Shown: positions 3,073 to 28,813 of the stretch, piece after piece
Numbering within the stretch: position 1 is the stretch's first letter
Layout of the letters: each line of letters opens with the position of its first letter
Origin: Candidatus Eiseniibacteriota bacterium
Lineage (GTDB): Bacteria; Eisenbacteria; RBG-16-71-46; CAIMUX01; VGJL01
Length of the DNA: 64,000 nucleotides
Assembly (NCBI GenBank): GCA_041946735.1
Contig: JBHGAY010000005.1
Location: 64,001 to 128,000 of the forward strand
Reading direction: 5' to 3'
Notes under the pieces: model-generated
What the model was told of the DNA's origin: nothing
Seen by the model: the letters and a program-made list of their open reading frames with translations, nothing else
The model's database searches: none
Made by a program: the position numbers and the translations under genes

Positions 3073-6690
<3,618 letters not shown>

Positions 6691-6702
6691 GGGAGGACGA
6701 CG

Positions 6703-7692: not shown

Positions 7693-7756
7693 CCGGACAG
7701 CCGAACGAAGCGTCCTCCGCGCATGCAGGGCCGGAAGGCGCTGCGGCCGGGATGGG

Positions 7757-7796
7757 AAGCCGACAGGGACCGGGCGACCGGTCCCTTCGGTTTTTT
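7757..7796 (+). terminator. Intrinsic terminator of the nifJ operon
   Basis: Stem GGGACCGG, GCGA loop, CCGGTCCC, extended by AGCCGA/TCGGTT, then a T6 tract. Confidence 0.8.
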
Positions 7797-7875
7797 GGGG
7801 GCCTCGAAGGAGCGCGCCCGGCGTCGGCAAGATCGGAAGCGTTGCGCCGGGCGCACTCGCGCGGCCATAGTGCGG

Positions 7876-7919
7876 GGACGGCCGGACAGCCGGACGGCCG
7901 GATGGCAGGATGGCAGGAC
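7876..7919. repeat. Imperfect 8-nt tandem repeat, about 5.5 units
   Basis: GGACGGCC GGACAGCC GGACGGCC GGATGGCA GGATGGCA GGAC, upstream of rmuC. Confidence 0.8.
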
Positions 7920-7957
7920 CGCCGGGCGGCCGCCGCACGTCAGGGAGGATCGGTCGG

Positions 7958-9370: not shown

Positions 9371-9408
9371 AGATCGGCGAGAGGCGGCAGGGAAGCGGGC
9401 GAGGCGAG

Positions 9409-10873: not shown

Positions 10874-11103
10874 GACCCCACTCCTTCCCACGCGAACGAC
10901 CCCGGGATCGCACGCGTCCGACCCATCACGTAGCGACGAACCGGTTCGGTGCCGGAACGCCGCCCCGCCTGGCGGCGGGACTACTCGCAACGAGACTAGC
11001 GAAACCGTTCTCGATCGGGAAGGGTGCAAAACCATTCATGATTTGCAGTATCCTCGCGCGCGTTGCGCCGGGCGGCGAGGACCGCAGGAGGGGAGGGCGC
11101 CGG

Positions 11104-14100: not shown

Positions 14101-15087
14101 GGATTCCGGCGCGGGCCCGACAGCTTGACGGCGATCGCGTTGGTGCCGGGCGAGAAGCGGCGGCTGTTCGCGGGAGTCGACGACCTGCCGCAGGGGGAGC
14201 GGCTGCGCGGGACGCTGCGCCTGCTCGGAGAGCGGGAAGCGACGGTCTACGCCGAGATCCCCGTGCGCGCCGACACGCGACCGCTGGCGCCGGCCGATGA
14301 GGAGCGCGTCGATGCGATCGCGGCGGCGGCCGTCACGCGGGCGCGGCTCCTCGCCGATCGTACGGACGTCGCGGCCGACGATCGCAACGAGGCCTTGGCG
14401 CGGCTCGACCGGGCCGCGCGGATCGCGGAGGCGGCGCCGGCATCGCATTCCGGCCGTGCAGGAGACGAGGACGAGGACGAGGACGAGGAGAGCGAGAAGA
14501 GGCTCCCGCAAGGATGGGAGATCGCGGTCGCCAAGGCCAGGCTGCTCCTCGCCGGGGGCGAAGAGGATCTCGATGCGGCGGCGGACGCGATCGACCGCGT
14601 CGCGGAGCTCGCGGGCCCGGAGAGCGGGGCGGATCCGGAGGAGATCGCGCGGGCGCGCGGCCGAGAGGCCGTCGCCGCGGCTCTGAGCGCGCAGCTCGCC
14701 ATCGAGCGCGGACGGACCGGAGAGGCGCGGGAGCGGTTCGACGAGGCGCGTTCCCTCGATCCGAGTGCGCCCGGCCTGGACCGGCTCGAGCCGCTGCTCC
14801 TCCTCGCCGAAGGGAAGCCGGAGCAGGCGCGCGAGCCGGCGGAGTCGTACCTGCGCGAGCATCCGGACGACGTCGAGGTCGACGCCTCGCTCGTGCGCGA
14901 CTACGTCGCGCTCGGCTGGTGGGACCTGGCGACGCTCATCCTCGAGCGGTGGCCCGAGCGCCATCCGCGCGCGAACGACACGCTGCTCGCACTCTGGCGG
15001 GATCTCGACGAGAGCCGCTCGCGCGGGGCGCGCGAGGCCGCTCCGAGCCCGCTGCTTCCGGTTCCTCTGCTGTCGCGGGGAGAGTGA
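11104..15087 (+). CDS. Secreted S8 protease, tripeptidyl-peptidase II-like, with C-terminal TPR-like region
   Basis: LPKEDLGVLDFLAKHPESDGRGVIVAILDTG (Asp), GGHGTHVAGI (His), NGTSMASP (Ser); long Asp-His insertion; Ala-rich signal-like N-terminus; start uncertain. Confidence 0.88.
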   Translation: MERQGVRWLRSGFGIAAASAAAAVAAAWAASMFAGTAPAVASSAISAPAGPPAERTALLEGYLPKEDLGVLDFLAKHPESDGRGVIVAILDTGIELGHPALQRTSTGEPKILDVYDATDDGYLALPVQARVGDRDLVGLSGRALVLPSDVEAGAEARLGVLLGRRNFPGGLQERRERERRDAWQRLRARWEAAADAAADAAADSAVGAAPRSGERADEPADERANEHREAAAEALDRILEHGEDPGDRFDVVALRRAGGWEVRIDTDADGDLAEETPLRPYRERRDVARFGDPEQLTVALERIAGDGSSLFLFYDEGGHGTHVAGIVAGYYGDGDPLNGLAPGAKLIAAKVGNGRMGGSTSHNSIVKAAQWAVDHGADVINISFGGTSFFDDGTELTSVFLDELAQATGVVICSSAGNEGPALSTIGSPGSARRVFGWGAAISRKTQQTNYASLDPRRDDLFDFSSRGPLLSGDPGVDFIAPGAALSTLPVWGLLKGESWNGTSMASPQGAGFCALMLSACRQQGIPVTVDRLRRAMRAGARRLPGLSVIEQGDGMPQAEATLGALRALAQAYPAEASAARVPHDVGAAEPVIGYRVQVHNATGSGGGYYERDLLATEKFRVPFGVAPDFPGDSLQAARAGFLRIVQLESEVPWMRPPAQAAIHSNGTRIPIEIDPAKLAAGLNVGRVVARDVKHPEAGIEFALVATVIRPMDVDPRRPVVEGTWEVARGDRVSAFVRVPAGATLARLTLRELAAEPANSYEAALSDPDRLRAPEERVATRYLDLAREQEATIDLGVLAGTVVEAVAFSRWQDNRPGRLRWRLEFDGVDATQEPPLAIDVDRPGSGFVIGASTWPVTVRFEGTLDRVEEPLDVRWDVRPDSLVAFSLHGIPALVERGEAYLAVDRDKEVRIDLGVGPEFEDLLDDAIFRVFDDSGREVAHGYLYEGTASFTPPAGGTVKIVFDIWTRGGEFFDQGTVVRPVVLREREAIPIVVHADPVGGFRRGPDSLTAIALVPGEKRRLFAGVDDLPQGERLRGTLRLLGEREATVYAEIPVRADTRPLAPADEERVDAIAAAAVTRARLLADRTDVAADDRNEALARLDRAARIAEAAPASHSGRAGDEDEDEDEESEKRLPQGWEIAVAKARLLLAGGEEDLDAAADAIDRVAELAGPESGADPEEIARARGREAVAAALSAQLAIERGRTGEARERFDEARSLDPSAPGLDRLEPLLLLAEGKPEQAREPAESYLREHPDDVEVDASLVRDYVALGWWDLATLILERWPERHPRANDTLLALWRDLDESRSRGAREAAPSPLLPVPLLSRGE

Positions 15088-15960: not shown

Positions 15961-16218
15961 GTCCGGCGCGCGCGCGCTTCCAGCCGCCCTCGGAGCAACG
16001 GCGGCCGGCGATCACGCCGGCCGCTTGCCGCGCCTCGTCTCCGCCGGGCGGCCGCGTGCATCCGTCCCTCCCCGATGCGCTATCCTCGGTCCTCCACAGG
16101 GCTACGCTTTCACGGCCGTGGCCTCGATGGCATCGATGACGAAGGAGCGGGGAGATGCGCATCAGTCCCACGATTCCGATTCGTTTCCTTCTTTCGCTCG
16201 CCGCCGTCCGATCGTCGT

Positions 16219-17328
16219 ATGCGCGCTGATCTCTTCGTGCCCGGACGCGTCTGCCTCTTCGGGGAGCATTCGGACTGGGCCGGCGGCTTCCGGCGCTCCC
16301 ACCCCGGGATCGCGAAAGGGCATGCCATCATCGCCGGCACGAGCCAGGGAATCCATGCGACCGCATCTCCGCACGCAGGCGCGCTTCTGCTCTCGTCGGT
16401 CACGGCGGACGGGGCGCATCACGGTCCCGTGGAGATTCCGATGGAGGCGGACGCGCTCCTCGCCGCCGCTCGTGGCAACGGCTTCTTCCGCTACGTCGCG
16501 GGCGTTGCCTACCGGATCCTCGAGCGTGCGCCGGCCGCCGCCGGCGGGCTACGCCTCGACAACGATGCGACCGATCTGCCTGTGGGGAAGGGGCTGTCGT
16601 CGAGCGCGGCGATCTGCGTGCTGACCGCCCGGGCATTCAACGTCCTGTACGATCTGGGGCTCACTCTCGCCGAGGAGATGGAGATCGCCTACGAGGGGGA
16701 GATCACGACGCCTTCGCGATGCGGGCGCATGGATCAGGGATGCGCCTATGGAAGCCGTCCGATCCACATGACTTTCGATGGGGACCGCGTCGAAGTCGAG
16801 GAGATCCGAGTCGGCGCCCCGTTGCACCTGCTTCTCGTCGATCTGGGAGCGGGCAAGGACACCGCGGCGATTCTCGCGGACCTGCAACACTCCTACCCGG
16901 TCGCCGTGACCGACCTGGACCGGGGCGTGCAGCATCTGCTCGGGGAGGCGAACGAGCGGACCGTGCGCGCCGCGATCGCCGCGATCGAGGCGGGAGACGC
17001 GCCCGGGCTCGGGCGGATGATGGCCGAGGCGCAGGAGCTCTTCGACCGCTATGCGGCTCCCGCCTCCCCGCGCGAGCTTGCCGCTCCCGCGCTGCACCGG
17101 GTGCTGCGCCATACTCCCTTGGCCGGCGTGGTTTGGGGAGGCAAAGGCGTCGGCTCGCAAGGCGACGGGGCGGCGCAGCTTCTGGCTCGAGGCGCCGGAG
17201 CGAGGGAGGAGGCGATCGAGATCCTGCGGCGCGACTTCGGCCTGCACTCGCTCCGCCTGACGATCGAACCGGGAAGCGGATCGCGAGCCTCCGGAATCGC
17301 TCGCGTGACGGACCAGGACTACGCGTGA
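16219..17328 (+). CDS. GHMP-family sugar kinase (galactokinase-like)
   Basis: PGRVCLFGEHSDW, LPVGKGLSSSAA, CGRMDQ, GGKGVGSQGDG. Confidence 0.9.
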   Translation: MRADLFVPGRVCLFGEHSDWAGGFRRSHPGIAKGHAIIAGTSQGIHATASPHAGALLLSSVTADGAHHGPVEIPMEADALLAAARGNGFFRYVAGVAYRILERAPAAAGGLRLDNDATDLPVGKGLSSSAAICVLTARAFNVLYDLGLTLAEEMEIAYEGEITTPSRCGRMDQGCAYGSRPIHMTFDGDRVEVEEIRVGAPLHLLLVDLGAGKDTAAILADLQHSYPVAVTDLDRGVQHLLGEANERTVRAAIAAIEAGDAPGLGRMMAEAQELFDRYAAPASPRELAAPALHRVLRHTPLAGVVWGGKGVGSQGDGAAQLLARGAGAREEAIEILRRDFGLHSLRLTIEPGSGSRASGIARVTDQDYA

Positions 17329-17341
17329 CGGACCAGGACTA
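17302..17341. repeat. Perfect 20-nt tandem duplication spanning the kinase stop codon
   Basis: CGCGTGACGGACCAGGACTA x2. Confidence 0.95.
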
Positions 17342-17352
17342 GGAGAACGCAC

Positions 17353-17784
17353 ATGCCGAAGAAAGAAGCGGCCGGCCATTGGCTCTTCAAGACCGAACCG
17401 TCCACCTTCTCGTTCGAGGATCTCGAGGCCAAGAAGAACGGCGATGTGTGGGACGGCGTCAAGAACGCCCTCGCCTTGAAGCATCTCGCGCAGGTACGGC
17501 GCGGAGACGAGATCCTGATCTACCACACCGGCGACGAGAAGGCGATCGTCGGCGTTGCGCGCGCGGTGCGCGATCCGTATCCCGATCCGAAGCAGGACGA
17601 TCCGAAGCTCCTCGTCGTCGACGTGCAAGCGGTTCGCAGGCTCCCCTTCCCCGTCGCGCTATCGGTGCTGAAGAAGGAGCCGCGCTATGCGGAGTTCGAC
17701 CTCGTCCGCCTGCCGCGCCTCTCGGTGATGCCGGTGCCGGGTGGCCTGTGGAAGGACATCCTGGGCCGTGGAGGGCTGACCTAG
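17353..17784 (+). CDS. EVE domain protein
   Basis: WLFKTEP..FSFEDL, WDGVKN, IYHTG, RLPRLSVMPV; RBS AGGAG. Confidence 0.93.
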   Translation: MPKKEAAGHWLFKTEPSTFSFEDLEAKKNGDVWDGVKNALALKHLAQVRRGDEILIYHTGDEKAIVGVARAVRDPYPDPKQDDPKLLVVDVQAVRRLPFPVALSVLKKEPRYAEFDLVRLPRLSVMPVPGGLWKDILGRGGLT

Positions 17785-17860
17785 ACTGCGCGCTCCGGCG
17801 GGCGCCGCCTCGGCGGATCCGCGAAGAAGCTCCGGCGGGCGACGGCGCGAAGAAGAGACG

Positions 17861-19420
17861 CTACCGGGTCAGCACCACCCGAGATGCGGCCGGGGATCCT
17901 CCACGATCGGGATCGATTCGGACGAAGTAGGTTCCGGCCGGCAATATGCGGCCTCGCTCGTCCCGCCCGTCCCATCGCGCGGCGCCGTCCCGCAGGACCA
18001 GCCTCCGCAGGAGACGCCCCGAGACGTCGAGCACACGGACCGCTGCGCTTCCGCCGTTCTTGATCCCCGCTCTGCCGGCCTTGCTCAGGCGGAGGTCGAT
18101 GGCCGCCCCGGCGGCGCCGGGATTCGGGTAGCAGACGAGCGGAGCGTTCCCGGCGAAGAAGGAGCCGCTTCCCGCGCCGACGGCCGCGTTGCCGGCGAGC
18201 GCATCCCGCAGCGCGAGCCCATCCAGGCGCCCGCTTCCCAACTTCCCGATGTAGGGCTCGTTCTCCACGATGTCATAGATGTCGATGACGCCGGTGCGAA
18301 CCAGCTCCCAGAGCGCCTCGCTCTCCAGTTCGGGAAACAGCGACAGGAGCAGCGCGGACTGCGCCGAGATGAAGGGGGTGGCGAACGAGGTCCCGGCGCC
18401 GATCGCATACTGGCCGTCGTGGTAAGGGGCGAGAACGCCCATTCCCGGAGCGGAGACCGAGACGTGGGAGTGGAAGTTCGAGAAGTCCGCCTTCACGTCG
18501 GCGGAGTCCAGGGCGGCGACCGAAAGCACGTTCGAATCGGAGGCCGGGAAGTACTGAGGGTTTTCGAGATTCATGTTGCCCGCGGCGGCCGCCATCACGA
18601 CCTGCAGCGTATCCGCGACCTCGATCTCACGGTGGATCACGAAGGAGCGATTCGTGAGCCCGAAGCTCATGTTGATCACATCCGCTCCGTGCTCGGTCGC
18701 GTACCGGATCGCTTTCGCCACGTCGAAGGTCGTCCCGGTCCCCTCGTCATCGAGGACCCGGATCGGCAGGATCTTTGCCCCCGGTGCGACCAGATGGACG
18801 ATCCCCGCGATCATCGTGCCATGTCCGGCGCCCTCGTCGATGGCGCCGTCATTGTCGTCGTCGAGGCCGTTCGCGCTGTCCGTCGGGTCCGCGTCGTCGG
18901 CCACGAAGTCCCACCCATCCGGCAATACCGCGCCCTCGAGCGCCGGGTGCTCGGCAAGGATTCCGGAGTCCAGGATCGCGACGGTGACACCGGAGCCGAT
19001 CGTCACCTCATGAATCTCGGCGAGATGGAGGCGCTCGGCCAGGCGTTGATCAAGGTAGTCGTCGATGGTTCCGCCCACGGCCGTCACGACCATCTGCCCG
19101 GTTCCTTCCGGGGTCTCGTTCTCGTAGGAATACTCGCCGTCCTCTACGTCGGGGTCGTCGAGGAGCGCGTCGAGAAGATCGTCCTCGTTTCCGCCGACCG
19201 GAACTTGCAGGAGGTAGAGGGGCGGCAGCGAATCGAGGGTCGTGGAGCCGTAGCGGGCGTTGATCGCCTCGATCGATGCCCCGGGGACCAGCTCGAGCTG
19301 CACCTGCCCGCTCTCCCAATCCGCCCACGCGGCGGAAGAGAAGAGCGCGAGCGTGAGAACGCCTGCGGCGGCGCACCAACGGAGGACCGGGCGGCCGGCG
19401 ATCGGCATTGGTCGTTTCAT
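17861..19420 (-). CDS. Secreted S8 (subtilisin-like) protease with C-terminal FlgD-Ig/CTD-like domain
   Basis: Signal peptide, VAILDSG, GHGTMIAG, AAAAGN, GTSFATP; C-terminal YPNP..DVSGRLLR..WDGRDERG..PAGTYFVR; RBS GGAGGAG. Confidence 0.92.
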   Translation of the reverse strand: MKRPMPIAGRPVLRWCAAAGVLTLALFSSAAWADWESGQVQLELVPGASIEAINARYGSTTLDSLPPLYLLQVPVGGNEDDLLDALLDDPDVEDGEYSYENETPEGTGQMVVTAVGGTIDDYLDQRLAERLHLAEIHEVTIGSGVTVAILDSGILAEHPALEGAVLPDGWDFVADDADPTDSANGLDDDNDGAIDEGAGHGTMIAGIVHLVAPGAKILPIRVLDDEGTGTTFDVAKAIRYATEHGADVINMSFGLTNRSFVIHREIEVADTLQVVMAAAAGNMNLENPQYFPASDSNVLSVAALDSADVKADFSNFHSHVSVSAPGMGVLAPYHDGQYAIGAGTSFATPFISAQSALLLSLFPELESEALWELVRTGVIDIYDIVENEPYIGKLGSGRLDGLALRDALAGNAAVGAGSGSFFAGNAPLVCYPNPGAAGAAIDLRLSKAGRAGIKNGGSAAVRVLDVSGRLLRRLVLRDGAARWDGRDERGRILPAGTYFVRIDPDRGGSPAASRVVLTR

Positions 19421-19495
19421 GTTGCGTTCTCCTCCGGGCATCGTGACCAGGATCGAATCCGATGACCAAGCATTATACATGGCGGGCTGCCGAGT

Positions 19496-22417
19496 TCATA
19501 CCGCCCCGGTGACGGCAAACGGCGCCCATTCCCAGGGATGCGGACGCCGTACGAGCGCCCGGCGCATCGCCCGACCCAGCGCTCGGGATGCGGAAGCGCC
19601 CGCGCCGAACGACTCGTAAAAGCCTTCCATCAGGTCGAGGGTCGATTCGTCCCCGACCGGCCAAAGGCTGCCGACGACCGTGGAGGCTCCGGCGCCGAGG
19701 AAGCCGCGCGCGAGGCCGACCCACTCCTCTCCGGCAGGAGCCGCCCCTCGCCCCGACGAACAGGCGGAAAGCACGACCGTCGATGCGGGCAGCCGCAGCC
19801 ACGCGAGATCGTGGACGAAGAAAGGGCCGTCGGCGAGCGCGAGGTACGAGTAGGCCGGGTTGTCGGAGCGCAGCGATCCGTGCGCCGCAATGTGGATGAG
19901 GCTCGCGTCTGGGCCGTTCTCCTTGAGTTGCGATGCCGTCGCGTCGACGTCGCGTCGAACGGTCCACCCCGGCAGGCGGGAGGACACCATCTCGATCTCT
20001 TGGCGCACGATCGGGAGATTCGGGGAGTCGACACCGCCGATCCAGGCAACCGGAGGCGTCGCGACCCGGCTGGACGCTTGGGCAATTCGCTGCGCGGGCG
20101 CCTGAGCCTGCGCGGGCGCACGCGCATCTCTGCCTCCGACTCCGGGGAGGCCTCTCCAGATTCTGGCGCTGGGGACGATCGCCAAGTCGCAACGCTCGAC
20201 GAGGTATCCGGAAGGATCGCGCAGCGCGTGCATCGGGACACGGTGCACCGCTCCGTGCGGCGAGATCATCCAGGAGCGGGAACGATCGATGCCCATCTCC
20301 TCGATCGGCTGCCACAGCAGCCGGTGGAGGTCGTGGAGGATCCGGTCCGCAGTCGAACGGAGAAGCTTGGCGGCTCCGGTCGTGCCGAGCGGGGCGAGCC
20401 GTCCCCGCCCTCCGGTCATCGCCGCTGCTCTCCACTGGAAGTCCAGCCGCTCGATCAGCTCGACGAGTCGAGCCGGCGTTTCGTCCGGGAGCCGACGCAC
20501 CGCGGCGCCGTGCTCGTCGATCACGACGGCCAGGGGGACTGTGCCGATGTGGTAGCTGACGAACCCCCACCCGGCCGGCAGGACGCTCGTGACGCCGGAG
20601 ACGGACGGAACTCCGTCCTCCATGGCGACTCCGCCCGGGCCTGCCGCGGTTCCTCCCTGTTCCTCCGCGAATTGCCGCAGCCCACGAGACCACTCCGACT
20701 CGGCCGTCCCAAGGCGCTCTCGCAGCGCGGCGATCTGCTCCCGTTCCGCCGCTGAACCCAGCTCCAGCCGGGCCAGACGCGCGTGGAGCCACGTGAGGCG
20801 CTGCCGCATGCTCTGTAGACGGCGGGACGAAGGAGTGTCGTGTTGCGAGAGCCCTGCCGCATGGAGGCCGCCAGGAGTCGGAAGGTTCCAGTCGGCCGAG
20901 GGAGAACGGAGGCGATCCCACAGTGCCTGGGCTCGGGAACGTTCCATGATCTCGAAGATGCGATCGACGGAGACGCTCCTTCTTCGCATCTCCAGAGCGA
21001 GGAGGCGGTCGTAGAGATGGCTCTTGTCCTCGAGGAAGGAGATCTTCGATTGCTCGGTCGGGATGCGGACCCGCAAGTCCTCGAGCTTGCCGATGGCCCT
21101 CCTGTAGCTCGTCACTGCCGCCGGCGTCGCGCCGGATCGCTCCTGAGCTTCACCGAGAGCCTCCAGGATCTGATACGCGGAGAGGGGATAGATCTTTTCC
21201 GGGAGCCGCCGGTGAAGTTCGCGCAGGCGGGTCGCGCCGCCGGCAGCGGCAGCCGGTCCTTGTCCCCCCCGCGCTTCCAGGCGGACGCGAAGCACCTCCG
21301 CCGCGGCCTCCCATCGCACGAGGCCGAGATCCGCGAATGCGGTCGCCGCACTCGCTGCGAGCTGAGCCGCCTCGGGCGTGTCCCCCCGGCGCGCGAGCGC
21401 CCTGCCAAGCAGCAGATCCATCAAAGCGACCCGTGCCTGGTTCTTCTCTTTCTGGAAGAGGGCGCGGGCGCGGCGGATCGTCCGGATCGCTTCGGAAGTC
21501 CGGCCGAGAGCGAGACGCGAAAGCCCTGCCTGGGCGAGTGCCGAGCCGCGGTCATACGCGAGGCCCGCAGCGGCGAACAGCGGAATCGCGAGCTCGCTCA
21601 GCTCCAGCGCTTCGGCGTGGAGGTTGAGCTGGTGATAGATCTCGGCGCGATTCAGGCGGCACGCGGCGAGAAAGGCAGGATGGTCGGTACGCTCGAAGTA
21701 CTCCGTGGCGCGAAGAAGCTGCGAAAGGGCGGAATCGAACTCGGCGCGCATCGCGTGAACGTAGGCGGCGTTCATGAGAGCTTGCGCGAGGAGCAGATGG
21801 TGTCCTGCCTCTTCGCACTCCTTCTCGATCCGTACGAAGAGGTCCAAGGCCTCTTGATCCCGGTCGAGCTGGGAGAGCGCCACTCCGCGGTTGATCTCGA
21901 GTCCGAGCACCGCGGCGTCACGAACTCCAAGGGATCGGAAGATCGCGGCGGCGCGGTCGTACTCCTCGAGAGCCGGACCGTAGCGATCCTCGCGAAACCG
22001 GCGGTTGCCGAGGTTCATCGCGAGTTTGGCGAGATAGGCGCGGTCGCCGGCCGCCTCGAGAAGACGTCGCGCCTCGCGAGCTGCCTCCTCGGCCTGGTCG
22101 AACCGGCCCATGAGCGCAAGGATGCTGGTGCGCCCTACGAGTAGTTGGCCCAGCAGCCCGTCGGCCCGCGCCTTTCGCCATGCGGCAGCGGCTTTTTCGT
22201 ACGAGCGATCCGCGGCTGCGAGGCGACCGGAGAAGAGCAGCGCCTCGGCCATCGCGCGGTGGCCCCAGCCAAGGGCGAGCGGGTCCTTCGAAGCTTGCGC
22301 CAGCGCGAGGGCTCGGCCGGCGATTCTCACGGCGGCCGGCGCATCGGAGTTGTAGAAGCGCGCGGCCTCGTCCCGCAGCGCCTCCACATCGGACGCCGTG
22401 GGGAGGGAAGGTTCCAT
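19496..22417 (-). CDS. TPR-CHAT caspase-like protease
   Basis: Long helical TPR-like N-terminus, ERSRAQAL, PHGAVHRVPMHAL, IHIAAHG (His), VVLSACSSG (Cys), SLWPVGD, HPWEWAPF. Confidence 0.93.
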   Translation of the reverse strand: MEPSLPTASDVEALRDEAARFYNSDAPAAVRIAGRALALAQASKDPLALGWGHRAMAEALLFSGRLAAADRSYEKAAAAWRKARADGLLGQLLVGRTSILALMGRFDQAEEAAREARRLLEAAGDRAYLAKLAMNLGNRRFREDRYGPALEEYDRAAAIFRSLGVRDAAVLGLEINRGVALSQLDRDQEALDLFVRIEKECEEAGHHLLLAQALMNAAYVHAMRAEFDSALSQLLRATEYFERTDHPAFLAACRLNRAEIYHQLNLHAEALELSELAIPLFAAAGLAYDRGSALAQAGLSRLALGRTSEAIRTIRRARALFQKEKNQARVALMDLLLGRALARRGDTPEAAQLAASAATAFADLGLVRWEAAAEVLRVRLEARGGQGPAAAAGGATRLRELHRRLPEKIYPLSAYQILEALGEAQERSGATPAAVTSYRRAIGKLEDLRVRIPTEQSKISFLEDKSHLYDRLLALEMRRRSVSVDRIFEIMERSRAQALWDRLRSPSADWNLPTPGGLHAAGLSQHDTPSSRRLQSMRQRLTWLHARLARLELGSAAEREQIAALRERLGTAESEWSRGLRQFAEEQGGTAAGPGGVAMEDGVPSVSGVTSVLPAGWGFVSYHIGTVPLAVVIDEHGAAVRRLPDETPARLVELIERLDFQWRAAAMTGGRGRLAPLGTTGAAKLLRSTADRILHDLHRLLWQPIEEMGIDRSRSWMISPHGAVHRVPMHALRDPSGYLVERCDLAIVPSARIWRGLPGVGGRDARAPAQAQAPAQRIAQASSRVATPPVAWIGGVDSPNLPIVRQEIEMVSSRLPGWTVRRDVDATASQLKENGPDASLIHIAAHGSLRSDNPAYSYLALADGPFFVHDLAWLRLPASTVVLSACSSGRGAAPAGEEWVGLARGFLGAGASTVVGSLWPVGDESTLDLMEGFYESFGAGASASRALGRAMRRALVRRPHPWEWAPFAVTGAV

Positions 22418-22435
22418 CGCTTGGGGAGCCGGTCC

Positions 22436-23137
22436 CTACTCGGGGTCCGAACCGCCGCTCGGACTTGCCGCCGCCGTTCCCAGATCGAGAGGGCCAACGA
22501 GGAGCGCCACGTCCCGCCACTCGATCCGGAGTCGCACTCCCTGAGCTGGGACCGATGGGAACCGGAACTCGCCCGTCTCCGCGAGCACGGCACGTCGAGC
22601 CCGGCCCCCTCGCTCCAGGAACACCTGCCCCGTCTCGCCCCCGAACTCGCCCTCGGAAGGCAGGAACTGGCCGCTGAGATCGACGCGTCCGCGCGCCCCT
22701 CGGTCGATCTGCAAATGCAGACTCCCGCGCGATGCTTCGAAGAGAAGACGCCGGGGTTGCATCGATGCGGCGGCCTGGGACCGAGTTCCGGGGATCACGG
22801 CCAACGTCCCGGTGTCGAGGCGCAGCGCCATCGGCACCCTTTCCAGCGCTTCGCGGGCGGTGGCCACGATCCGGGACGTCGTCCGGCTTCGGGATACGGC
22901 GCGGATCGCACCGGCCTCCCGGAGCGCGTCCATGGCGGCCTCTCGCGCTCGATCCGGCATCTTCTCGAGCGGCCCGGCGGCGAGCAGAGCGAGGGCCGTG
23001 CGGAATCCTTCGATCTTCGAACGGCAGGCGGGACAGCCTCCCGCGAGGTGAGACTCGATCCTCTCGCGCGCTTCATCCGTGCGCGATTCCCCCTCGCTGT
23101 ATTCCAGAAGCTGCTCGTCTCGAGGATGCGGCTTCAT
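22436..23137 (-). CDS. Putative soluble zinc-finger anti-sigma factor with C-terminal beta-sandwich
   Basis: HP..EQLLEY..HLAGGCPAC (zf-HC2-like); no TM segment; C-terminal LSGQ..GEFRF..VP; ATGA overlap with the sigma stop. Confidence 0.8.
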   Translation of the reverse strand: MKPHPRDEQLLEYSEGESRTDEARERIESHLAGGCPACRSKIEGFRTALALLAAGPLEKMPDRAREAAMDALREAGAIRAVSRSRTTSRIVATAREALERVPMALRLDTGTLAVIPGTRSQAAASMQPRRLLFEASRGSLHLQIDRGARGRVDLSGQFLPSEGEFGGETGQVFLERGGRARRAVLAETGEFRFPSVPAQGVRLRIEWRDVALLVGPLDLGTAAASPSGGSDPE

Positions 23138-23886
23138 TCGTGTCTCCCCCCTCGCCGGGTCGTCCCCGCGGTTCCGGTCTGGTCCTTCTGTTGACCAGAC
23201 GCGACGGGGAGGCGTTCTGATACGACAGCGCTGGCATCGGCGAGAATGCGCCGCATCTTCTCGAGACAGCGAGCGCGTGTCGGTCCGATGCTGCCGATCG
23301 GCAGGGCCGCGCGGCGGGCGACTTCCGCGTAGTCGAGCGGCGGATCCTCGTAGAAGAGCAGCCGGATCAGGAGCCGGCACCGTTCGGGAAGGCGGGAGAG
23401 CGCTTGACGCGCAGCCTGCGCCCGCTCGAGGGCGAGGTACATCTCCTCGGCGGGCGGCGCCGGGTCCTCGATCCGCCTCACCTCGTTCAGGCTCGACTCG
23501 GAGAGATCGTCGATCGGCGTCTCCTGCAGCTTCTTGCGCATCCGGAGGGTGTCGATCCCTTGGGTGTAGGCGATGCGGACCATCCACGGGACGATCTTGT
23601 CGAAGTCCCGCAAGTCGGCCAGATTCTTATAGATCGACAGGACGGCGTTCTGAAACGCGTCCTCGCGATCCTCCGCCCGCGTGAGACCGGCCCTGCGGCG
23701 AATCGTCGAGTAGATCAGGTCTCCGTATCGCCGGAGGAACTCCTCCCACGCGCTTTCCCGTCCCTCGCGGCATCCCCGGAGCAACTCCTCGACCGAAGTG
23801 GCAGCGAGGTTGCGGGGACGTGCGAGGGCCGGGAGGGCCAACGAGAGGCGAGCCTTCCCGGCGGTCCCGCCTGCCTTCCGGTGCAT
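23134..23886 (-). CDS. ECF sigma-70 factor
   Basis: Region 2 (AWEEFLRRYGDLIY, EDAFQ, PWMVRIA) and region 4 (LPERCRLLIRLLF..YAEVA..PIGSIGPTRARCL). Confidence 0.93.
   Translation of the reverse strand: MHRKAGGTAGKARLSLALPALARPRNLAATSVEELLRGCREGRESAWEEFLRRYGDLIYSTIRRRAGLTRAEDREDAFQNAVLSIYKNLADLRDFDKIVPWMVRIAYTQGIDTLRMRKKLQETPIDDLSESSLNEVRRIEDPAPPAEEMYLALERAQAARQALSRLPERCRLLIRLLFYEDPPLDYAEVARRAALPIGSIGPTRARCLEKMRRILADASAVVSERLPVASGQQKDQTGTAGTTRRGGRHE
23198..23223 (-). promoter_or_regulatory. Candidate ECF promoter inside the sigma 3' end, facing the anti-sigma/CHAT genes
   Basis: Minus strand GTATCAG-N15-CGTC. Confidence 0.45.
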
Positions 23887-23894
23887 AGCCGGCC

Positions 23895-23903
23895 AGGATA
23901 GCA
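23895..23903 (-). promoter_or_regulatory. Candidate extended -10 promoter for the sigma gene
   Basis: TGcTATCCT 8 nt before ATG 23886; no RBS. Confidence 0.45.
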
Positions 23904-24011
23904 CAGCCGGCCACGAGGTTCCCTTCAACCGGGCGACCGGCGGTGCGGGTAGGCGCGGGCCCACGCGCTGGCTTCCGCGCGGGCTTCTTCCATCCACGGT
24001 CGGAATTCCTG

Positions 24012-24036
24012 GTATCAGCGGAGCCGCCCCGCCGTC
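24012..24036 (+). promoter_or_regulatory. Candidate ECF promoter for the glycosyltransferase operon
   Basis: GTATCAG-N14-CGTC ending 32 nt before ATG 24069. Confidence 0.45.
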
Positions 24037-24068
24037 AGATCCAGTGCAAGGGTCGCATCGAGGGGGAC

Positions 24069-25436
24069 ATGCATCCAAACGGCTCGATTCGAATCCTGAT
24101 GTACTCGCACGATACCTTCGGGCTGGGGCACCTGACCCGCACCGTGCGTATCGCGCGAGCATTGCGGGCCCGTTACGGGACCGCTTCGATCCTCATTCTG
24201 ACCGGCTCCCCCGTGGCGACCTACATGCCGCTTCCCGAAGGCGCGGATCTCGTTAAGCTCCCGACGGTCGTCAAGGCAGGGGCGGAGCGCTACCGGGCCC
24301 GCGACCTCGAAGTGACCTTCGGCCAGGTGAAGCGTCTGCGTCGCGATCTGATACGGAGGGCGGCCGAGTCGTTCCGTCCTCACCTGTTCCTGGTCGACAA
24401 CGTCCCCCTCGGAATGAAGGGGGAGATCCTGCCCACCCTTCGATGGTTTCGGGCATCGAGTCCCGGAACGAAGATCGCGCTCGATCTTCGCGACATTCTC
24501 GACGATCCGTCGGTCATTCGCGAAGCCTGGCGCCGGGATGGAGTGCCGGAGGCGCTCGACAGCCTCTACGATCGCATCTTCGTTTTAGGGGACTCGGTCT
24601 TCTTCGACTCGGCAGCGGCCTACGACTTGCCGTCGTCGAAGACCGTCCATCTCGGGTACGGCACGCCGGAAGTGCGGGCATCGAAGCGGCCCGGAACGAA
24701 GAGGACCCGTGCGCCTCGAATTCTCCTCACCGTCGGAGGAGGCGGCGATGGCGCGGGGTTCCTGGAGCGGGCGCTCCTCGGCCTCTCGGACGGCGCTATC
24801 GACGAAGTGTCGGGGCGGCGGCCCCGGGCGTCGGCGCGGATCGAGGTCGTGACGGGTCCTCTCATGGATCCGGAGGGGAAGCGGCGGATCGCCGCACGGG
24901 CGATGCAGATTGGCGCGCTCGTTCACGAGTTCGTGCCCGATCTGCCGGCGCGGATGTCACGGGCCGACCTCGTCGTCGCGATGGCGGGATACAACACCTG
25001 CTGCGAGATCCTATCCCACGCCCGGGCCGCGCTCGTCGTGCCTCGCCGGACCCCGAGGATCGAGCAGCTCCTGCGCGCCGAGGCGTTCGAGCGCCGAGGT
25101 CTGGTTCGAGTCCTCCCCTCGATCGAATCGGAGCCGGGCGAGATCGCCGCCGCGATCCGGCGGGCCTTGGAGCAAGGCCCGTGGATCGACCAGGGGCAGA
25201 TGCCGGTGGTCGGCGGGTTCGCGCGACTCGCTGAGGAGGCGGGCTCGCTCTGCCCGGAGCTCGAGCGCCCGCCGGCGGTCGTGGTCTCGCAGCCCGCGCA
25301 ACGCGCGCGCGCCGCGCCCGCCCCATCCCCGCGGGGTGGGGGCGCAAGCGCGCCATCCACGGGCGGCCACGACGTGTGGCTCCGGCCGGGGACCTCGGCC
25401 CGCATCCCGGCGGGCTCGCGCCAGTCGGAATCCTGA
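24069..25436 (+). CDS. GT-B glycosyltransferase (COG4671-like, GT28-C-like C-terminus)
   Basis: MYSHDTFGLGHLTR, LVDNVPLG, LRDILD, TVGGGGDG, AMAGYNTCCE, EQLLRA. Confidence 0.88.
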   Translation: MHPNGSIRILMYSHDTFGLGHLTRTVRIARALRARYGTASILILTGSPVATYMPLPEGADLVKLPTVVKAGAERYRARDLEVTFGQVKRLRRDLIRRAAESFRPHLFLVDNVPLGMKGEILPTLRWFRASSPGTKIALDLRDILDDPSVIREAWRRDGVPEALDSLYDRIFVLGDSVFFDSAAAYDLPSSKTVHLGYGTPEVRASKRPGTKRTRAPRILLTVGGGGDGAGFLERALLGLSDGAIDEVSGRRPRASARIEVVTGPLMDPEGKRRIAARAMQIGALVHEFVPDLPARMSRADLVVAMAGYNTCCEILSHARAALVVPRRTPRIEQLLRAEAFERRGLVRVLPSIESEPGEIAAAIRRALEQGPWIDQGQMPVVGGFARLAEEAGSLCPELERPPAVVVSQPAQRARAAPAPSPRGGGASAPSTGGHDVWLRPGTSARIPAGSRQSES

Positions 25437-25444: not shown

Positions 25445-26602
25445 GTGCGTGACTCTCGAACCAAACGGAACGGCTCAGCGGCGCGCCTCTCGGTGTGCCT
25501 CTCGGCGGCCTTCTCGGCGGGCCATCTCTCGCCGGCGTTCTCGGCGGCCCGCCTCCGCGCTGGCTGCCTCGCGATCCTTCTCCTCGCGGGAGCTCTCCTC
25601 GGCGCGCCTGCCGGCTCGAGCGCCCGCTCCTCCCCGCTCCGTCCATCGTCCTGGGGAGGAGAAGTGGCTTTCGGCTGGGATTCGAATCTGCTTTCTTCGT
25701 CCACCGCCGAAACGCGGGCTTTCGACACCGGCGGAGGGGACTCCTTCTTCGCCGTCGATCGTCTGGAGGATGCGCGCGCCCGTGCCGGCTTCTGGGGTCG
25801 CTGGGAGGTGCCGTCGTTCTACAAGAGCCTTCGCATCGAGGGCTCGTACGAACGCTTCGAGGCGCTTCACGAGTCGATCGTCGGGTCGGGAGTGTATGCC
25901 ATCGGGCTGCGCCAGAAGCTCCCCGATGGATCGAGGATCGACCTGTCCGCTGCGTATTGTCCCCAGATCTATCTCCGTCACCGGACGAACAAGGAAGCCC
26001 TCCCGGGCGAGCCGCAATTCCGTCCGGAGGCGTCGCGCCAGATGGAGCTGGAGATCGCGCACTCCCGGCCTTTCGCCGGCACGCGCCTGGAGGCTTCGAT
26101 CGACTACGAGACCGAACGGAGGATTCGCTGGTTCCGCGAACGGGACGAAGAGACGTGGACCGCCGGCCTCAATGTCGAAGTGCCCCTCGTCTCGTCGATC
26201 GATCTCATCGGCGCCGGGTTCGTCGGAGGCAGCCGCACCGTGGCGCCGAATCGCGAGCCTGGGCTCGACCGCTCCCATCGGCAGGCGATCACCGGGCTGC
26301 GCCTGAGCGCCGAGCCGGGCCTGCCGGCCGGTCCCTGGGAGATGCAGGCGGGCACCCGGTGGAAGTTCCGCGACTACACGACAGACGATCCGACCGACTC
26401 GAGCCGCTATCACCGCAACGACCGGATCGTCAGCTGGGATGTTCGCATCGGCCGTCCCATGGGCGCATTCGTTCCCTTCGTCTCCTACGAAGGGAGCTTG
26501 CGCCGGGTGCATCTGCCGTCCGGGGCACAATCCTCCAACGAGGAGGGGGAGTATGACGACACCCTGATCTCGCTCGGGGTGCAATGGGAGTTCTCAAGGT
26601 GA
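25445..26602 (+). CDS. Putative outer-membrane beta-barrel protein
   Basis: Signal-like N-terminus, GWDSNL, alternating aromatic/polar strands, C-terminal SLGVQWEF; GTG start inferred. Confidence 0.65.
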   Translation: MRDSRTKRNGSAARLSVCLSAAFSAGHLSPAFSAARLRAGCLAILLLAGALLGAPAGSSARSSPLRPSSWGGEVAFGWDSNLLSSSTAETRAFDTGGGDSFFAVDRLEDARARAGFWGRWEVPSFYKSLRIEGSYERFEALHESIVGSGVYAIGLRQKLPDGSRIDLSAAYCPQIYLRHRTNKEALPGEPQFRPEASRQMELEIAHSRPFAGTRLEASIDYETERRIRWFRERDEETWTAGLNVEVPLVSSIDLIGAGFVGGSRTVAPNREPGLDRSHRQAITGLRLSAEPGLPAGPWEMQAGTRWKFRDYTTDDPTDSSRYHRNDRIVSWDVRIGRPMGAFVPFVSYEGSLRRVHLPSGAQSSNEEGEYDDTLISLGVQWEFSR

Positions 26603-28089
26603 TTCAAAGGAAAGGCAACGGTTGCGCGCTGCGCATCGCTCCGAGGTCGCAGCCTCTCCGCGCGGTCCTTCTCGCCGTCCTGCTCTCCTCGATCGCGGGG
26701 ATGGCGGCACCCCTCAGGGCGTCGCTCGATTCGGGAAGCTGGCCGATGTTCCATCGCGATGCGGGCCACACGGGGCTTTCTCCCCTCCTCGCACCGGAGA
26801 TCGGCGTCATCGCCTGGACGAGATCGCTGAGCGACACGGTGGAGTTCTCCTCCCCCGCCGTCACATCGTCGGCGACGGTTTTGGTCGGTGACCAGGGAAA
26901 GGAGCTTTGGGCGTTCGATCTGTGGGGGAACGAGCGCTGGAACTACCACGCGCTCGGGAACATCCGCTACAGCAGCCCGGCAGTCAGGTCCAACGGGACG
27001 GTCTACTTCGGGGCGGGAGACGGCAAACTCTACGCGGTCTGGCCGAGCGGACGCCTGGCTTGGAGCGTGCAAACAGGCGCAGCCGTGAAGACATCCCCGG
27101 CGATCGCGCCCGATGGGACGATCTACGCCGGCAGCGACGATGGCAGTCTCTGGGCCGTTCGCGCCGACGGATCGGTCAAGTTCACGTTCGCGACCGGCGA
27201 CACCGTCCGCTCCTCGCCCGCCCTGGCAGCGGACGGCACCATCGTCTTCGGATCGCATGACGGGATGGTGAGAGCGCTTTGGCCCAATGGCAGCCTTCGC
27301 TGGGAGGTGGCTACGGGCGGCCCGATCAAGACCGCGCCCGCGATCCGGCAGAACCATGTCATCGTCGCGTCGTCCGATGGCTTCCTCTACGACTTCTCGA
27401 TCGACGGGACGTTCAACTGGGCGACCTACACCGGGAACAATCTCCGCTCCTCGCCTGCATTCGGCTCCACCGGGAAGATCTACCTGGGCGTCGACACGAA
27501 GATCTCCTGCTTCCACGACGACGGGAGCCCCTCGTTCTCTTACGAGACCGGAGCGAAGATCTACTCCTCGCCCGCCGTAACTTCCGACTACGACGGCCAG
27601 GACATTGTCCTCTGCGGCTCGGACAGCGGGTACCTCTACGCGGTCAAAGCGGGCACGCTCCTCTGGTCGTGCAACTTGGGAGCGCCGGTCCGCTCCTCGC
27701 CCGCGATCGGACCGAACCGGATCGCCTACGTGGGAGCCATGAACGGCAACCTCTACGCGATCGGGTACGTGAATCCCGCCTCCGCCGGCGGCGACGCCGC
27801 CACTTCGACGGTAGGCCTCGCCCTCAGCCCCAACCCCGTCCGAGGCGACTCGCCCGTTTCGATCCACCTGCTCGATCCGCGGGGGGCGGGTCGGCTCGGG
27901 GACGCGCCGATCCTGATCCTCGATCCTTCCGGACGAAGGATCCGTTCGCTTCAGGCTGCGGCGGGGGAGGGGATCGCCGTGTGGGACGGCCGGGACATGG
28001 CCGGCCGGCGAGTGCCGGCGGGAGTCTACTGGATCCGTGTCGGCGAGCTCGATCGACGGACGAGCACGCGTCTCGTCCGGATACCTTGA
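26599..28089 (+). CDS. Secreted PQQ/BamB-like beta-propeller protein with FlgD-Ig/CTD-like domain
   Basis: WPMFHRDAGHTG, about 8 SSPA..GTIYxGSxDGxLYA repeats, C-terminal SPNP..WDGRDMAG..PAGVYW; GTGA overlap with the previous stop. Confidence 0.88.
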   Translation: MIQRKGNGCALRIAPRSQPLRAVLLAVLLSSIAGMAAPLRASLDSGSWPMFHRDAGHTGLSPLLAPEIGVIAWTRSLSDTVEFSSPAVTSSATVLVGDQGKELWAFDLWGNERWNYHALGNIRYSSPAVRSNGTVYFGAGDGKLYAVWPSGRLAWSVQTGAAVKTSPAIAPDGTIYAGSDDGSLWAVRADGSVKFTFATGDTVRSSPALAADGTIVFGSHDGMVRALWPNGSLRWEVATGGPIKTAPAIRQNHVIVASSDGFLYDFSIDGTFNWATYTGNNLRSSPAFGSTGKIYLGVDTKISCFHDDGSPSFSYETGAKIYSSPAVTSDYDGQDIVLCGSDSGYLYAVKAGTLLWSCNLGAPVRSSPAIGPNRIAYVGAMNGNLYAIGYVNPASAGGDAATSTVGLALSPNPVRGDSPVSIHLLDPRGAGRLGDAPILILDPSGRRIRSLQAAAGEGIAVWDGRDMAGRRVPAGVYWIRVGELDRRTSTRLVRIP

Positions 28090-28105: not shown

Positions 28106-28813
28106 ATGAAGAGAATCGTTCCATCTCTCGCGGCCCTCCTGCTCCTGCCGGTCCTCGGCTGCTCGCCCGACCTGCGGGAGGAGCTGGGCCCCATCGTTCC
28201 GTTTCCGAACGTTCAGGGCACGGTCGTACGGGCCGGCGCCCCGGCCGAGGGGCTGAAAGTGAGGCTCCTCGAAACGGCGACCGATTCGGCGAGGAGCGAG
28301 GACCGAACGGCGCCAGACGGCCGCTACGCATTCAGCGAGGTGGGAGCGGGGGAGTGGACTCTGGAAGCGCGCTCGAACGACCCTGCCGACTTCTCGAGCG
28401 TGACCTATCCATTTGCGTTCGGGACTCCGGACACCTCGCTCGAGGCCCCGCCGCTCGAGATGTCGTTGCGCGGTCTCGCGCTTGGCTCGCCCGCCGACGG
28501 AGACACCTTGCCTGTGGCGAGTCCCGCAGCCCCGCTCACCTTCTCCTGGATCGCGCCGCAGCTTCCTCCGCAGGTCCAGGGCGTGACGATCCAGGTGCGC
28601 GTCTATGACGGTCAGGGCGATCCGGTCTGGTATTCCGAGAAGGTCGGCGCGGCGAGCGTCCGCTGGAACGGCCTGCAGAACCGGGGATCGGGGACGAACC
28701 GGCCGGCCTCGCCCGGCGCCTACAGCTGGAAGCTCCGGATGGAGATCGATGGCTCGGTGATCGAATGGACCACCTCCCGCCGGTCGTTCCTCTTCTCGGA
28801 GTCGATCCCATGA
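28106..28813 (+). CDS. Lipoprotein with carboxypeptidase-regulatory-like and FlgD-like domains
   Basis: Lipobox VLGC; TAPDGRYAFSEV..GEWTL; VRWNG..PGAYSWKL. Confidence 0.75.
   Translation: MKRIVPSLAALLLLPVLGCSPDLREELGPIVPFPNVQGTVVRAGAPAEGLKVRLLETATDSARSEDRTAPDGRYAFSEVGAGEWTLEARSNDPADFSSVTYPFAFGTPDTSLEAPPLEMSLRGLALGSPADGDTLPVASPAAPLTFSWIAPQLPPQVQGVTIQVRVYDGQGDPVWYSEKVGAASVRWNGLQNRGSGTNRPASPGAYSWKLRMEIDGSVIEWTTSRRSFLFSESIP

Follow-up and report, generated by a model that had tools for sequence, protein, structure and literature searches.

The closest described relatives of the locus reported here are found in ECF54, a sigma factor group of the extracytoplasmic function (ECF) type that was reportedly first described by Huang et al. 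in 2015. As summarized in a subsequent classification, the group is 100 per cent actinobacterial and shows a 'lack of putative AS factor' (Casas-Pastor et al. 2021, PMC7826278). It is one of the ECF groups without a known regulator. The same summary places a carboxypeptidase-regulatory-like protein at position +1 (0.61 per ECF), a subtilase at +2 or -1 (0.68 per ECF), and a CHAT domain with TPR repeats at +3 or -2 (0.71 per ECF), and gives GTATCAG (-35) and CTCC (-10) as the promoter (PMC7826278). Proteolytic control has already been proposed for ECF54 (PMC8999054). Here we describe a four-gene cassette with the same set of partners, carried by a Candidatus Eiseniibacteriota bacterium (Candidatus Eisenbacteria; assembly GCA_041946735.1) on a stretch of 64,000 nucleotides of contig JBHGAY010000005.1 (positions 64,001 to 128,000) that we refer to as the window. 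We put the probability that this cassette is an ECF54-type cytoplasmic protease-gated sigma switch at about one in two.

In the CalpL/CalpT/CalpS system of type III CRISPR, cyclic-oligoadenylate-driven proteolysis of an anti-sigma-like inhibitor, acting via a SAVED domain, is said to free an ECF sigma factor. Proteolysis of such an inhibitor is also described for the SAVED-CHAT/PCaspase systems of type III CRISPR, where the protease is switched on by cyclic nucleotides through its SAVED domain (bioRxiv 10.1101/2023.06.23.546230); in contrast, the window's locus has no SAVED domain and no Cas10 context. In Craspase, the TPR-CHAT protease Csx29 cleaves Csx30, an inhibitor of an ECF sigma factor whose N-terminal part binds sigma and whose C-terminal part is cut, and further degradation of the remaining inhibitor fragment is invoked there as it is for RseA (PMC10028731). 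In the DdvS/DdvA pair of Myxococcus xanthus, an ECF sigma factor is held by a zinc-bound helical anti-sigma (ZAS) domain coupled to a separase/craspase-type TPR-CHAT region, with CHAT-triggered proteolysis proposed as the releasing step (PMC11506125). DdvA is described as one transmembrane polypeptide that runs from a cytoplasmic ZAS domain through the membrane to a periplasmic, dimeric TPR-CHAT without three active-site helices; it needs RseP, and it controls a CBASS-CRISPR island (PMC11506125).

The cassette occupies the minus strand at 17861-23886 as four tightly packed, co-oriented open reading frames in the order sigma, anti-sigma, CHAT, S8:

23134..23886, minus strand: ECF sigma factor gene (250 residues, sigma-2 and sigma-4 regions only), assigned by Pfam, TIGR02937, and alignment A3
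22436..23137, minus strand: gene for a soluble two-domain anti-sigma-like protein (233 residues), hereafter the +1 protein, assigned by alignment A1, an AlphaFold2 model, and profile matches
19496..22417, minus strand: gene for a cytoplasmic TPR-CHAT caspase-like protease (973 residues), assigned by Pfam CHAT, TPR_12, and alignment A2
17861..19420, minus strand: gene for a secreted subtilisin-like S8 protease (519 residues), assigned by Pfam Peptidase_S8 and FlgD_ig

The sigma stop and the anti-sigma start share an ATGA overlap, 18 nt separate the anti-sigma stop from the CHAT ATG, and 75 nt separate the CHAT stop from the S8 ATG at 19420. The first in-frame ATG of the S8 reading frame is at 19480; we prefer the start at 19420 because it is preceded, at 7-8 nt, by a GGAGGAG ribosome site and because the ATG at 19480 falls within an extended -10-like element, TGTATAAT. 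Searches with the RAMP and Cas1 families gave no matches in the window's own genome (94.8 per cent complete), while control genomes matched in the same searches. The four-gene cassette is a real, conserved, CRISPR-free unit.

The sigma protein matches TIGR02937 (E 2.6e-21; 75.9 bits, cut-off 42.9) and Pfam Sigma70_r2 (E 4.6e-06; 26.8 bits, cut-off 24), with Sigma70_r4 falling just below its cut-off (E 1.9e-04; 21.3 bits, cut-off 24.1). Limited to regions sigma-2 and sigma-4 and matching the ECF superfamily model, it is an ECF (group IV) sigma-70 factor. Across the seventeen sequences of alignment A3, the region-4 motif P-x-GS-x-GPTR-x-RC is invariant. The third gene encodes a CHAT peptidase, with strong matches to Pfam CHAT (PF12770; E 6.5e-55; 187 bits, cut-off 24) and TPR_12 (E 2.2e-15). 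Its IAAHG and LSAC motifs carry a catalytic His846 and Cys886 that are invariant in 17/17 aligned homologues (alignment A2, mean column identity 55 per cent). The highest 19-residue hydropathy window of this protein is 1.38 (threshold 1.6), and its N-terminus has no signal-peptide-like stretch. Searched against solved structures, its profile matches Csx29 chains (E 1.4e-13) over the CHAT domain only.

The +1 protein has no transmembrane helix, since no 19-residue Kyte-Doolittle window exceeds 1.08. P61 is invariant in alignment A1 (22 sequences), and H4, C35, and C38 nearly so. A linker that varies in length and composition follows this N-terminal domain and leads into a conserved segment, L-V-L-D-S-x-x-G-A-x-L-x-G-I-R-G-x5-P-R-Q-L-L-F-E, and then into G-Q-F-L-P and G-E-F-x-F motifs; L105, D108, R119, and R129 are invariant in all 22 sequences. 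The window copy has H4, H30, C35, and C38, in a zinc motif spaced H-x4-C-x2-C where the canonical form is H-x3-C-x2-C (homologues have either x3 or x4). Pfam zf-HC2 matches 2/22 family members and CarboxypepD_reg 7/22 (best E 1.8e-05), the window copy being matched by neither, and the NCBIfam 'anti-sigma factor' model NF052375 is hit below its cut-off (E 8.7e-07; 29.2 bits, cut-off 100).

Against the PDB, the +1 family profile matches RsiW (0.001) and ChrR (0.004) over the N-terminal 80 residues, and NOMO2 (7.6e-05) through its C-terminal part, the matched NOMO2 repeats being of the carboxypeptidase-regulatory-like kind. An AlphaFold2 model (mean predicted local distance difference test score, pLDDT, 84.2) has helices at 7-14, 21-32, 36-53, and 62-81, a strand pair at 99-108, and a beta-sandwich at 129-217, with a lower-confidence loop at 109-128 (blocks 111-120 and 121-130 at pLDDT 69 and 76). 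A Foldseek search of this model against the PDB gave no match at E <= 0.001, returning generic beta-sandwiches and a weak ChrR row. The near-invariant H4/C35/C38, the RsiW and ChrR matches, the modelled helical N-domain, and the ATGA overlap with the sigma gene all speak for an anti-sigma nature. From these sequence features we regard the protein as a soluble two-domain anti-sigma candidate, with a zinc-finger-like helical N-domain and a carboxypeptidase-regulatory-like beta-sandwich.

The initial annotation of this DNA, made from the letters alone, had described four co-oriented genes with the overlap and gaps given above, intact His/Cys motifs in the CHAT protein, a zinc-finger partner with no transmembrane helix, and an absence of cas genes from the window. 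The gene arrangement, the intact catalytic motifs, and the soluble partner are all confirmed, and the absence of cas genes holds for RAMP and Cas1 genome-wide. The zinc-finger label carries a small caveat: the His and Cys ligands are there, but their spacing is non-canonical and zf-HC2 does not match.

We then modelled the complex of the CHAT protein with its putative substrate, using truncated chains (CHAT 125-973 and anti-sigma 86-233), each with its own alignment. The predicted complex scored an ipSAE of 0.72 (0.72, 0.73, and 0.70 in the individual runs), compared with 0.00 for the best of three controls. This mark is reached by 116/157 solved complexes and 2/215 mismatched pairs, a calibration that holds only roughly here because own alignments were used. 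Between runs, 75 per cent or more of the contacts are the same, and partner pLDDT does not fall below 72. In the confident interface, CHAT 657-668 and 681-692 contact anti-sigma residues 107, 109, 115, 127-132, 138-143, 155-164, and 188-190. On the CHAT side these residues make up an L-D-F-Q-W-x-A-A-A helix and a segment just before the CHAT domain, and they include R657, L658, D659, F660, Q661, W662, and A664-666. On the other side the interface includes G156, Q157, P160, G189, and F191, taking in the G-Q-F-L-P and G-E-F motifs. Both families are at their most conserved here, which gives independent support for a real contact. The model thus suggests that the anti-sigma beta-sandwich probably docks on the conserved helix of the CHAT protein.

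The docking site at 657-692 lies outside the catalytic residues. No confident contact reaches His846 or Cys886, and the loop at 109-128 contributes only residues 109, 115, 127, and 128; the model therefore speaks for docking, not for cutting. Such a geometry would suit a TPR-CHAT protein that is a non-cutting sensor or scaffold and works by partner switching, with the protease acting on itself or on other substrates. The CHAT action proposed for DdvA is indeed self-cleavage, and mutation of its dyad is described as giving no phenotype in unstimulated cells (PMC11506125). We nonetheless consider a non-cutting role quite unlikely for the window's protein. The dyad and its surrounding motifs are invariant in 17/17 homologues at the column identity given above, which argues that protease activity is under selection, and the conserved lower-confidence loop with its invariant Arg119 sits beside the docked domain.

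For the protease-gated switch, we propose the following sequence of events. The sigma factor would be made constitutively from its own leaderless, housekeeping-type promoter and held by the zinc-finger-like N-domain of the soluble +1 protein. With the beta-sandwich of that protein docked on the helix just before the CHAT domain, sigma, inhibitor, and protease would sit in one assembly. A cytoplasmic cue acting on the long TPR array (~650 residues) would activate the His846/Cys886 dyad, and the activated CHAT domain would cut the docked inhibitor, most plausibly in the conserved, lower-confidence loop at 109-128 with its invariant Arg119. We favour this site because separase cuts after Arg (PMC11506125) and because the variable linker offers no conserved site. 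General proteases would remove the remaining N-terminal inhibitor piece. We infer that the freed sigma would then transcribe from GTATCA-N14-16-CGAC/CGTC promoters, including that of a glycosyltransferase/secreted-protein operon described below. Fresh anti-sigma and CHAT protein (and S8), made under sigma control, would reset the switch by negative feedback. Given these targets, the output is most likely a change of the cell surface and the secreted proteome. Taken in full, with a CRISPR-independent TPR-CHAT protein that holds a soluble anti-sigma, cuts it at the Arg119 loop on cue, and frees an ECF54-like sigma whose activity changes surface glycosylation and the set of secreted proteins, the account is a tentative one, somewhat short of an even chance.

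The scheme has clear counterparts among the systems introduced above. Like Craspase, the cassette pairs a cytoplasmic TPR-CHAT protein with a soluble two-part sigma inhibitor (compare Csx30 in PMC10028731), and the CHAT domain of Csx29 is its closest solved relative by sequence. Unlike Craspase, it comes without Cas7-11, crRNA, or Csx31, and the genome has no RAMP or Cas1 match; activation cannot be by target RNA. The CHAT protein also stays outside the Csx29 family NF041237 (29.1 bits, cut-off 300, with the match confined to the CHAT core), and among solved structures the anti-sigma-relevant matches of its partner are to RsiW, ChrR, and NOMO-type beta-sandwiches only. The difference from DdvA is one of architecture and predicted output. 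There are two genes and no transmembrane helix in either product, so the locus is not of the DdvA type. Two separate, soluble, cytoplasmic proteins would be joined via a beta-sandwich that does not figure in the cited account of DdvA, and the predicted targets are glycosyltransferase and secreted-protein genes rather than a CBASS-CRISPR island (PMC11506125).

The likeness to ECF54 extends to the whole set of partners, i.e. an ECF sigma factor, a carboxypeptidase-regulatory-like +1 protein, a subtilase, and a TPR-CHAT protein. For the +1 protein this assignment is made through its family (CarboxypepD_reg in 7/22 members and NOMO2 at 7.6e-05), the window copy itself having no Pfam match. The promoter is also of the described kind, here GTATCA(G)-N14-16-CGACYYCT. 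The differences from the group as summarized in PMC7826278 are the lineage (Candidatus Eisenbacteria as opposed to Actinobacteria only), the extra zinc-finger-like anti-sigma N-domain on the +1 protein (ECF54 being described without an anti-sigma), and the gene order (sigma, +1, CHAT, S8 here, compared with a subtilase at +2 or -1). In addition, the promoter here follows the sigma gene, which has its own predicted leaderless promoter. Because of the lineage and the predicted anti-sigma domain, we file the cassette as an ECF54-like variant and not as a member of the published group. A literature search from 2022 on for TPR-CHAT proteins with sigma factors found no bench test of the stand-alone cassette; the papers found concern CRISPR systems or DdvA.

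We next looked for the cassette in relatives. A six-frame search with the 233-residue protein over 206 genomes of the same phylum gave matches in 77/206, many of them to the N-terminal zinc domain only. We took ~9 kb on each side of the twenty best full-length matches and, adding the genome's own second copy, searched these twenty-one loci with the four window proteins. All four genes are present in 18/21 loci. In fifteen of them a single strand carries sigma, anti-sigma, CHAT, and S8 in that order, the contig start truncating sigma in one of the fifteen (L041). S8 is divergent and upstream of sigma in L051 and L053; L054 has it downstream of CHAT, with an extra sigma gene of opposite orientation in between. 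Two more loci (L045, L050) are cut by contig ends. The remaining one, L036, has anti-sigma (8954-9604) and CHAT (6039-8957) genes with no sigma or S8 gene within 9 kb. The extra gene of L054 (5479-6237, minus strand) encodes an ECF sigma factor of the same family and is divergent from S8. The anti-sigma-CHAT pair of L036 lies directly downstream of a tRNA gene, with a promoter of the form GTATCA...CGACCTCT, and the same genome has a second CHAT copy elsewhere.

The CHAT profile matches 64 of the 206 genomes at E <= 1e-50, 40 of them with a best E <= 1e-100, and there are up to four matches per genome, making the cassette a multi-copy family in this lineage. The window's genome itself carries a second full cassette (contig C34, locus L004, 6368-12671) whose sigma, anti-sigma, CHAT, and S8 proteins are 47, 30, 50, and 52 per cent identical to those of the window. 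Its third CHAT gene (L005) has no cassette partners. The divergent neighbour of the second copy is a RecD2-like helicase gene (801 residues) with a GTATCAGG-N-CGAC site 153 nt upstream (C34:180770-180794), which makes it a possible target.

Farther afield, a single-protein CHAT query returned 91 pattern matches, none confirmed, and the CHAT alignment was used as the query instead. With one genome per species, this locus search found forty-three loci: 17/43 are full-length matches from Candidatus Eisenbacteria or metagenome-assembled genomes, and 26/43 are CHAT-domain-only matches from Actinobacteria (Saccharopolyspora, Actinomadura, Pseudonocardiaceae, Acidimicrobiia, and others). We scanned L069-L098 with the alignment profiles, leaving out L056-L068, most of which coincide with loci already analysed. 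The four Eisenbacteria-type loci in this set (L069-L072) each have all four genes. In the actinobacterial loci, the sigma profile A3 matches the sigma gene next to CHAT in 23/26 (E 5e-13 to 1e-42), a small protein adjoining sigma matches the C-terminal half of the anti-sigma profile (~81-208) in 16/26 (E 1e-4 to 3e-13), and an S8 gene is present in 16/26, usually just upstream of sigma. Zinc-finger helices are missing from the actinobacterial +1 proteins, which keep a 'DPVP' helix, an L-x-L-x-x-D-S...G-V-R...R-x-L-T-F segment, and the sandwich. Gene linkage across these genomes is far beyond chance.

The +1 family is also large. Its profile, searched against 1.84 billion cluster representatives, gives 119 matches at E <= 1e-30 and 2241 at E <= 1e-10, and the best 150 are nearly all 180-245 residues long and cover the whole profile. 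In a word-indexed search (11 matches), public names of homologues are 'hypothetical protein' or, rarely, 'anti-sigma factor RsiW'. The search for fused, longer forms found one match, a 1346-residue multi-repeat beta-sandwich protein that is not a CHAT or sigma fusion, which is weak evidence.

Promoter motifs were obtained by reading aligned upstream regions side by side; an exact bipartite k-mer search upstream of the sigma genes returned GC-rich noise only, and a consensus promoter scan of 17300-24300 found 0 sigma-70-type sites. Terminator-like sites in the same interval are at chance level (3 compared with 2.8). The elements in and around the cassette are as follows:

23895..23903, minus strand: extended -10-like element TGCTATCCT, 8 nt before the sigma ATG, a candidate housekeeping-type promoter giving a leaderless sigma mRNA
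23198..23223, minus strand: GTATCAG-N15-CGTC motif (window copy GTATCAG-N15-CGTCTGG) lying 60 nt upstream of the anti-sigma ATG, within the sigma gene at its 3' end, by pattern match
24012..24036, plus strand: GTATCAG-N14-CGTC motif pointing away from the cassette, by pattern match
19472..19479, minus strand: extended -10-like element TGTATAAT in the CHAT-S8 gap, a candidate separate S8 promoter, read by eye

The first of these would be an extended -10 of the housekeeping type, and the position of TGCTATCCT fixes the sigma start codon at 23886. A TGnTAnnnT element ending 4-12 nt before the predicted sigma ATG is present in 13/20 homologous loci (shuffles: mean 0.19, max 2), which would leave the sigma mRNA leaderless. 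A second conserved bipartite element, AATTTGCGG-N15/16-CCTGA(A/C), occurs in five related loci (L042, L044, L045, L048, L055), 60-90 nt upstream of the sigma -10 element, and is absent from the window; it may serve as an operator or as an additional promoter.

The ECF54-type motif has two matches in the 64-kb window, where 0.2 are expected. In 20/22 loci, GTATCA precedes the anti-sigma start by 50-117 nt, and the other two have GTATCT and CTATCA (shuffles: mean 0.26, max 3). It is followed after 14-16 nt by CGAC(C/T)(C/T)CT or CGTC. In L051 and L053, the divergent S8 gene is also preceded by GTATCA-N15-CGTC, as read by eye. With an ECF-type promoter upstream of them, the anti-sigma-CHAT(-S8) genes are predicted targets of the sigma factor.

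The same placement is what one would see if sigma and the +1 protein formed an ordinary thiol/zinc-sensing pair, with release independent of proteolysis and with CHAT and S8 as mere members of the regulon. Zinc-finger domains of this kind in RsrA and ChrR sense oxidants or electrophiles, and H4, C35, and C38 are nearly invariant here. Gene context, moreover, cannot separate regulators from targets, as the ECF classification itself warns (Casas-Pastor et al. 2021, PMC7826278). We judge such a pair unlikely, in view of the specific docking predicted between the CHAT and +1 proteins (0.72 compared with 0.00) through the best-conserved residues of both families. In two of the twenty-two homologues (L045, L055) the Cys ligands are gone but the C-domain remains, and the actinobacterial +1 proteins, which have no zinc finger, keep the beta-sandwich and a neighbouring CHAT gene.

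The second motif in the window points to genes beyond the cassette, on the plus strand:

24069..25436, plus strand: GT28-like glycosyltransferase gene heading the divergent operon, a predicted sigma target (Pfam Glyco_tran_28_C, E 4.8e-09; motif 32 nt upstream)
about 25449-26602, plus strand: unassigned open reading frame in the divergent operon
26584-28089, plus strand: gene for a secreted PQQ-like beta-propeller with a FlgD_ig tail, in the divergent operon
28765-32823, plus strand: gene for a 1352-residue protein with three GT4 modules, in the divergent operon

A homologue of the GT28-like gene adjoins the cassette, in different arrangements, in three other loci (L039, L041, and L054, the last with GTATCT), so that the motif precedes it in 4/4 cases. 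Genome-wide, GTATCAG-N14-15-CGWC has seventeen sites, compared with 5 to 11 for other spacings of the same two elements. This number is not exceptional against 120 permuted heptamers, which average 10.8 sites and reach seventeen in 22/120 cases. Several of the sites precede genes for secreted proteins and several lie within genes (EF-G, FtsW, C1 peptidase); perhaps ~10 are real. Among the genes downstream of motif sites, 4/14 encode secreted proteins with a FlgD_ig tail; with at least 150 FlgD_ig matches in the genome, this does not establish an enrichment. The well-supported predicted targets, on motif evidence, are the cassette and the glycosyltransferase operon only.

These predicted targets bear on whether the cassette might instead be a stand-alone anti-phage or cell-suicide module, cued by a phage protein (as proposed for DdvA, the cue of Craspase being target RNA) and with defence as its output. 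By analogy, the studied sigma-coupled CHAT systems that we found, Craspase and DdvA, are tied to defence in their published accounts, and up to four paralogous matches per genome resemble diversifying conflict systems. The predicted targets here, in contrast, are glycosyltransferases and secreted proteins, and the neighbours are the glycosyltransferase operon, a GHMP kinase gene, and an EVE-domain gene. PADLOC gave no system-level match, returning weak BovA and generic subtilase matches only, and the RAMP and Cas1 searches of the genome found no cas genes. A defence module is, on this evidence, improbable.

The secreted protease is a member of Peptidase S8 (Pfam E 6.1e-43; 147.6 bits), with a signal peptide, a propeptide-like N-domain, the catalytic domain, and a FlgD_ig-type C-terminal tail (E 1.2e-04). 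Its Asp151/His200/Ser345 triad and oxyanion Asn250 are invariant in 19/19 homologues, and the hydrophobic N-terminal stretch of all nineteen means that the subtilase is exported throughout. Elements resembling TGTATAAT (TGnTAnaAT-like) were read by eye in the CHAT-S8 gaps of most loci compared. In the window's genome, six-frame FlgD_ig matches number at least 150, and nearly all are C-terminal in long open frames. The FlgD_ig tail, which the S8 protease of the cassette also carries, looks like this lineage's general sorting signal for secreted proteins. The secreted S8 protease is best read as an output, although this does not fully account for its very tight linkage across two phyla.

Several of these results weigh against the protease-gated switch. 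A purely cytoplasmic switch does not account for the always-linked secreted S8, and the promoter upstream of anti-sigma-CHAT-S8 fits mere-target status equally well. The zinc motif of the window copy has its non-canonical spacing and no zf-HC2 match, and L036 retains anti-sigma and CHAT with no sigma or S8 gene within 9 kb. As for the docking model, it was built from truncated chains, and its confident contacts leave out the dyad and most of the loop with the candidate cut site. Furthermore, the actinobacterial homologues do not conserve the LDFQW docking helix, so the interface prediction is not transferable to ECF54 proper.

The initial annotation had inferred that the TPRs sense a cytoplasmic signal and that the CHAT protease cleaves the anti-sigma to release sigma, stated that similar gene neighbourhoods occur in other bacteria, and knew of no established trigger or output. 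Of this inference, the real, CRISPR-free, conserved cassette, the soluble partner, and a predicted docking on CHAT now stand, the complex model scoring well above its controls, and the linkage is borne out by 18/21 loci and by L069-L072. An output can now be predicted from the ECF54-type motif at anti-sigma-CHAT(-S8) and at the glycosyltransferase operon. The novelty it implied was overstated, as the neighbourhood is in print as ECF54 and proteolytic control has been proposed (PMC7826278, PMC8999054). What is new here is the anti-sigma-like N-terminus on the +1 protein, the docking model, and the promoter architecture; the gene combination was already known.

On the other side of the cassette, the EVE-domain gene (17353-17784, plus strand; E 3.6e-35) and the GHMP/galactokinase-like kinase gene (16075-17328, plus strand) converge on the end of the S8 gene. 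The other loci compared have neither of them beside the cassette. About 3 kb from the cassette, on the opposite strand, the window also has a gene for a very large second S8 protease (11038-15087, plus strand; 1349 residues) that carries a tripeptidyl-peptidase II Ig-like domain and a C-terminal TPR_19 repeat.

For a sigma group described without a regulator, the cassette offers a concrete and testable one, a soluble anti-sigma candidate docked, by prediction, on a caspase-like protease. If the protease-gated switch is true, the 'orphan' ECF54 group would have had a hidden regulator all along. Craspase (Csx29-Csx30-sigma) and DdvA would then have been assembled from modules of the kind that this widespread cassette represents, and the cassette would be the first sigma switch gated by CHAT to work independently of both CRISPR and a membrane. 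Free of both, the caspase-like step should be readily reconstructed in E. coli from three genes and a single reporter promoter. The pieces for doing so are supplied here, namely the start codons, the promoter motifs, a candidate cut loop (Arg119), the predicted interface of CHAT F660/Q661/W662 with anti-sigma Q157/P160/F191, and the predicted target genes. Such a system could yield an orthogonal protease-operated sigma switch for synthetic biology. For this uncultured phylum, it would be a first regulatory circuit, with surface glycosylation as its predicted output.

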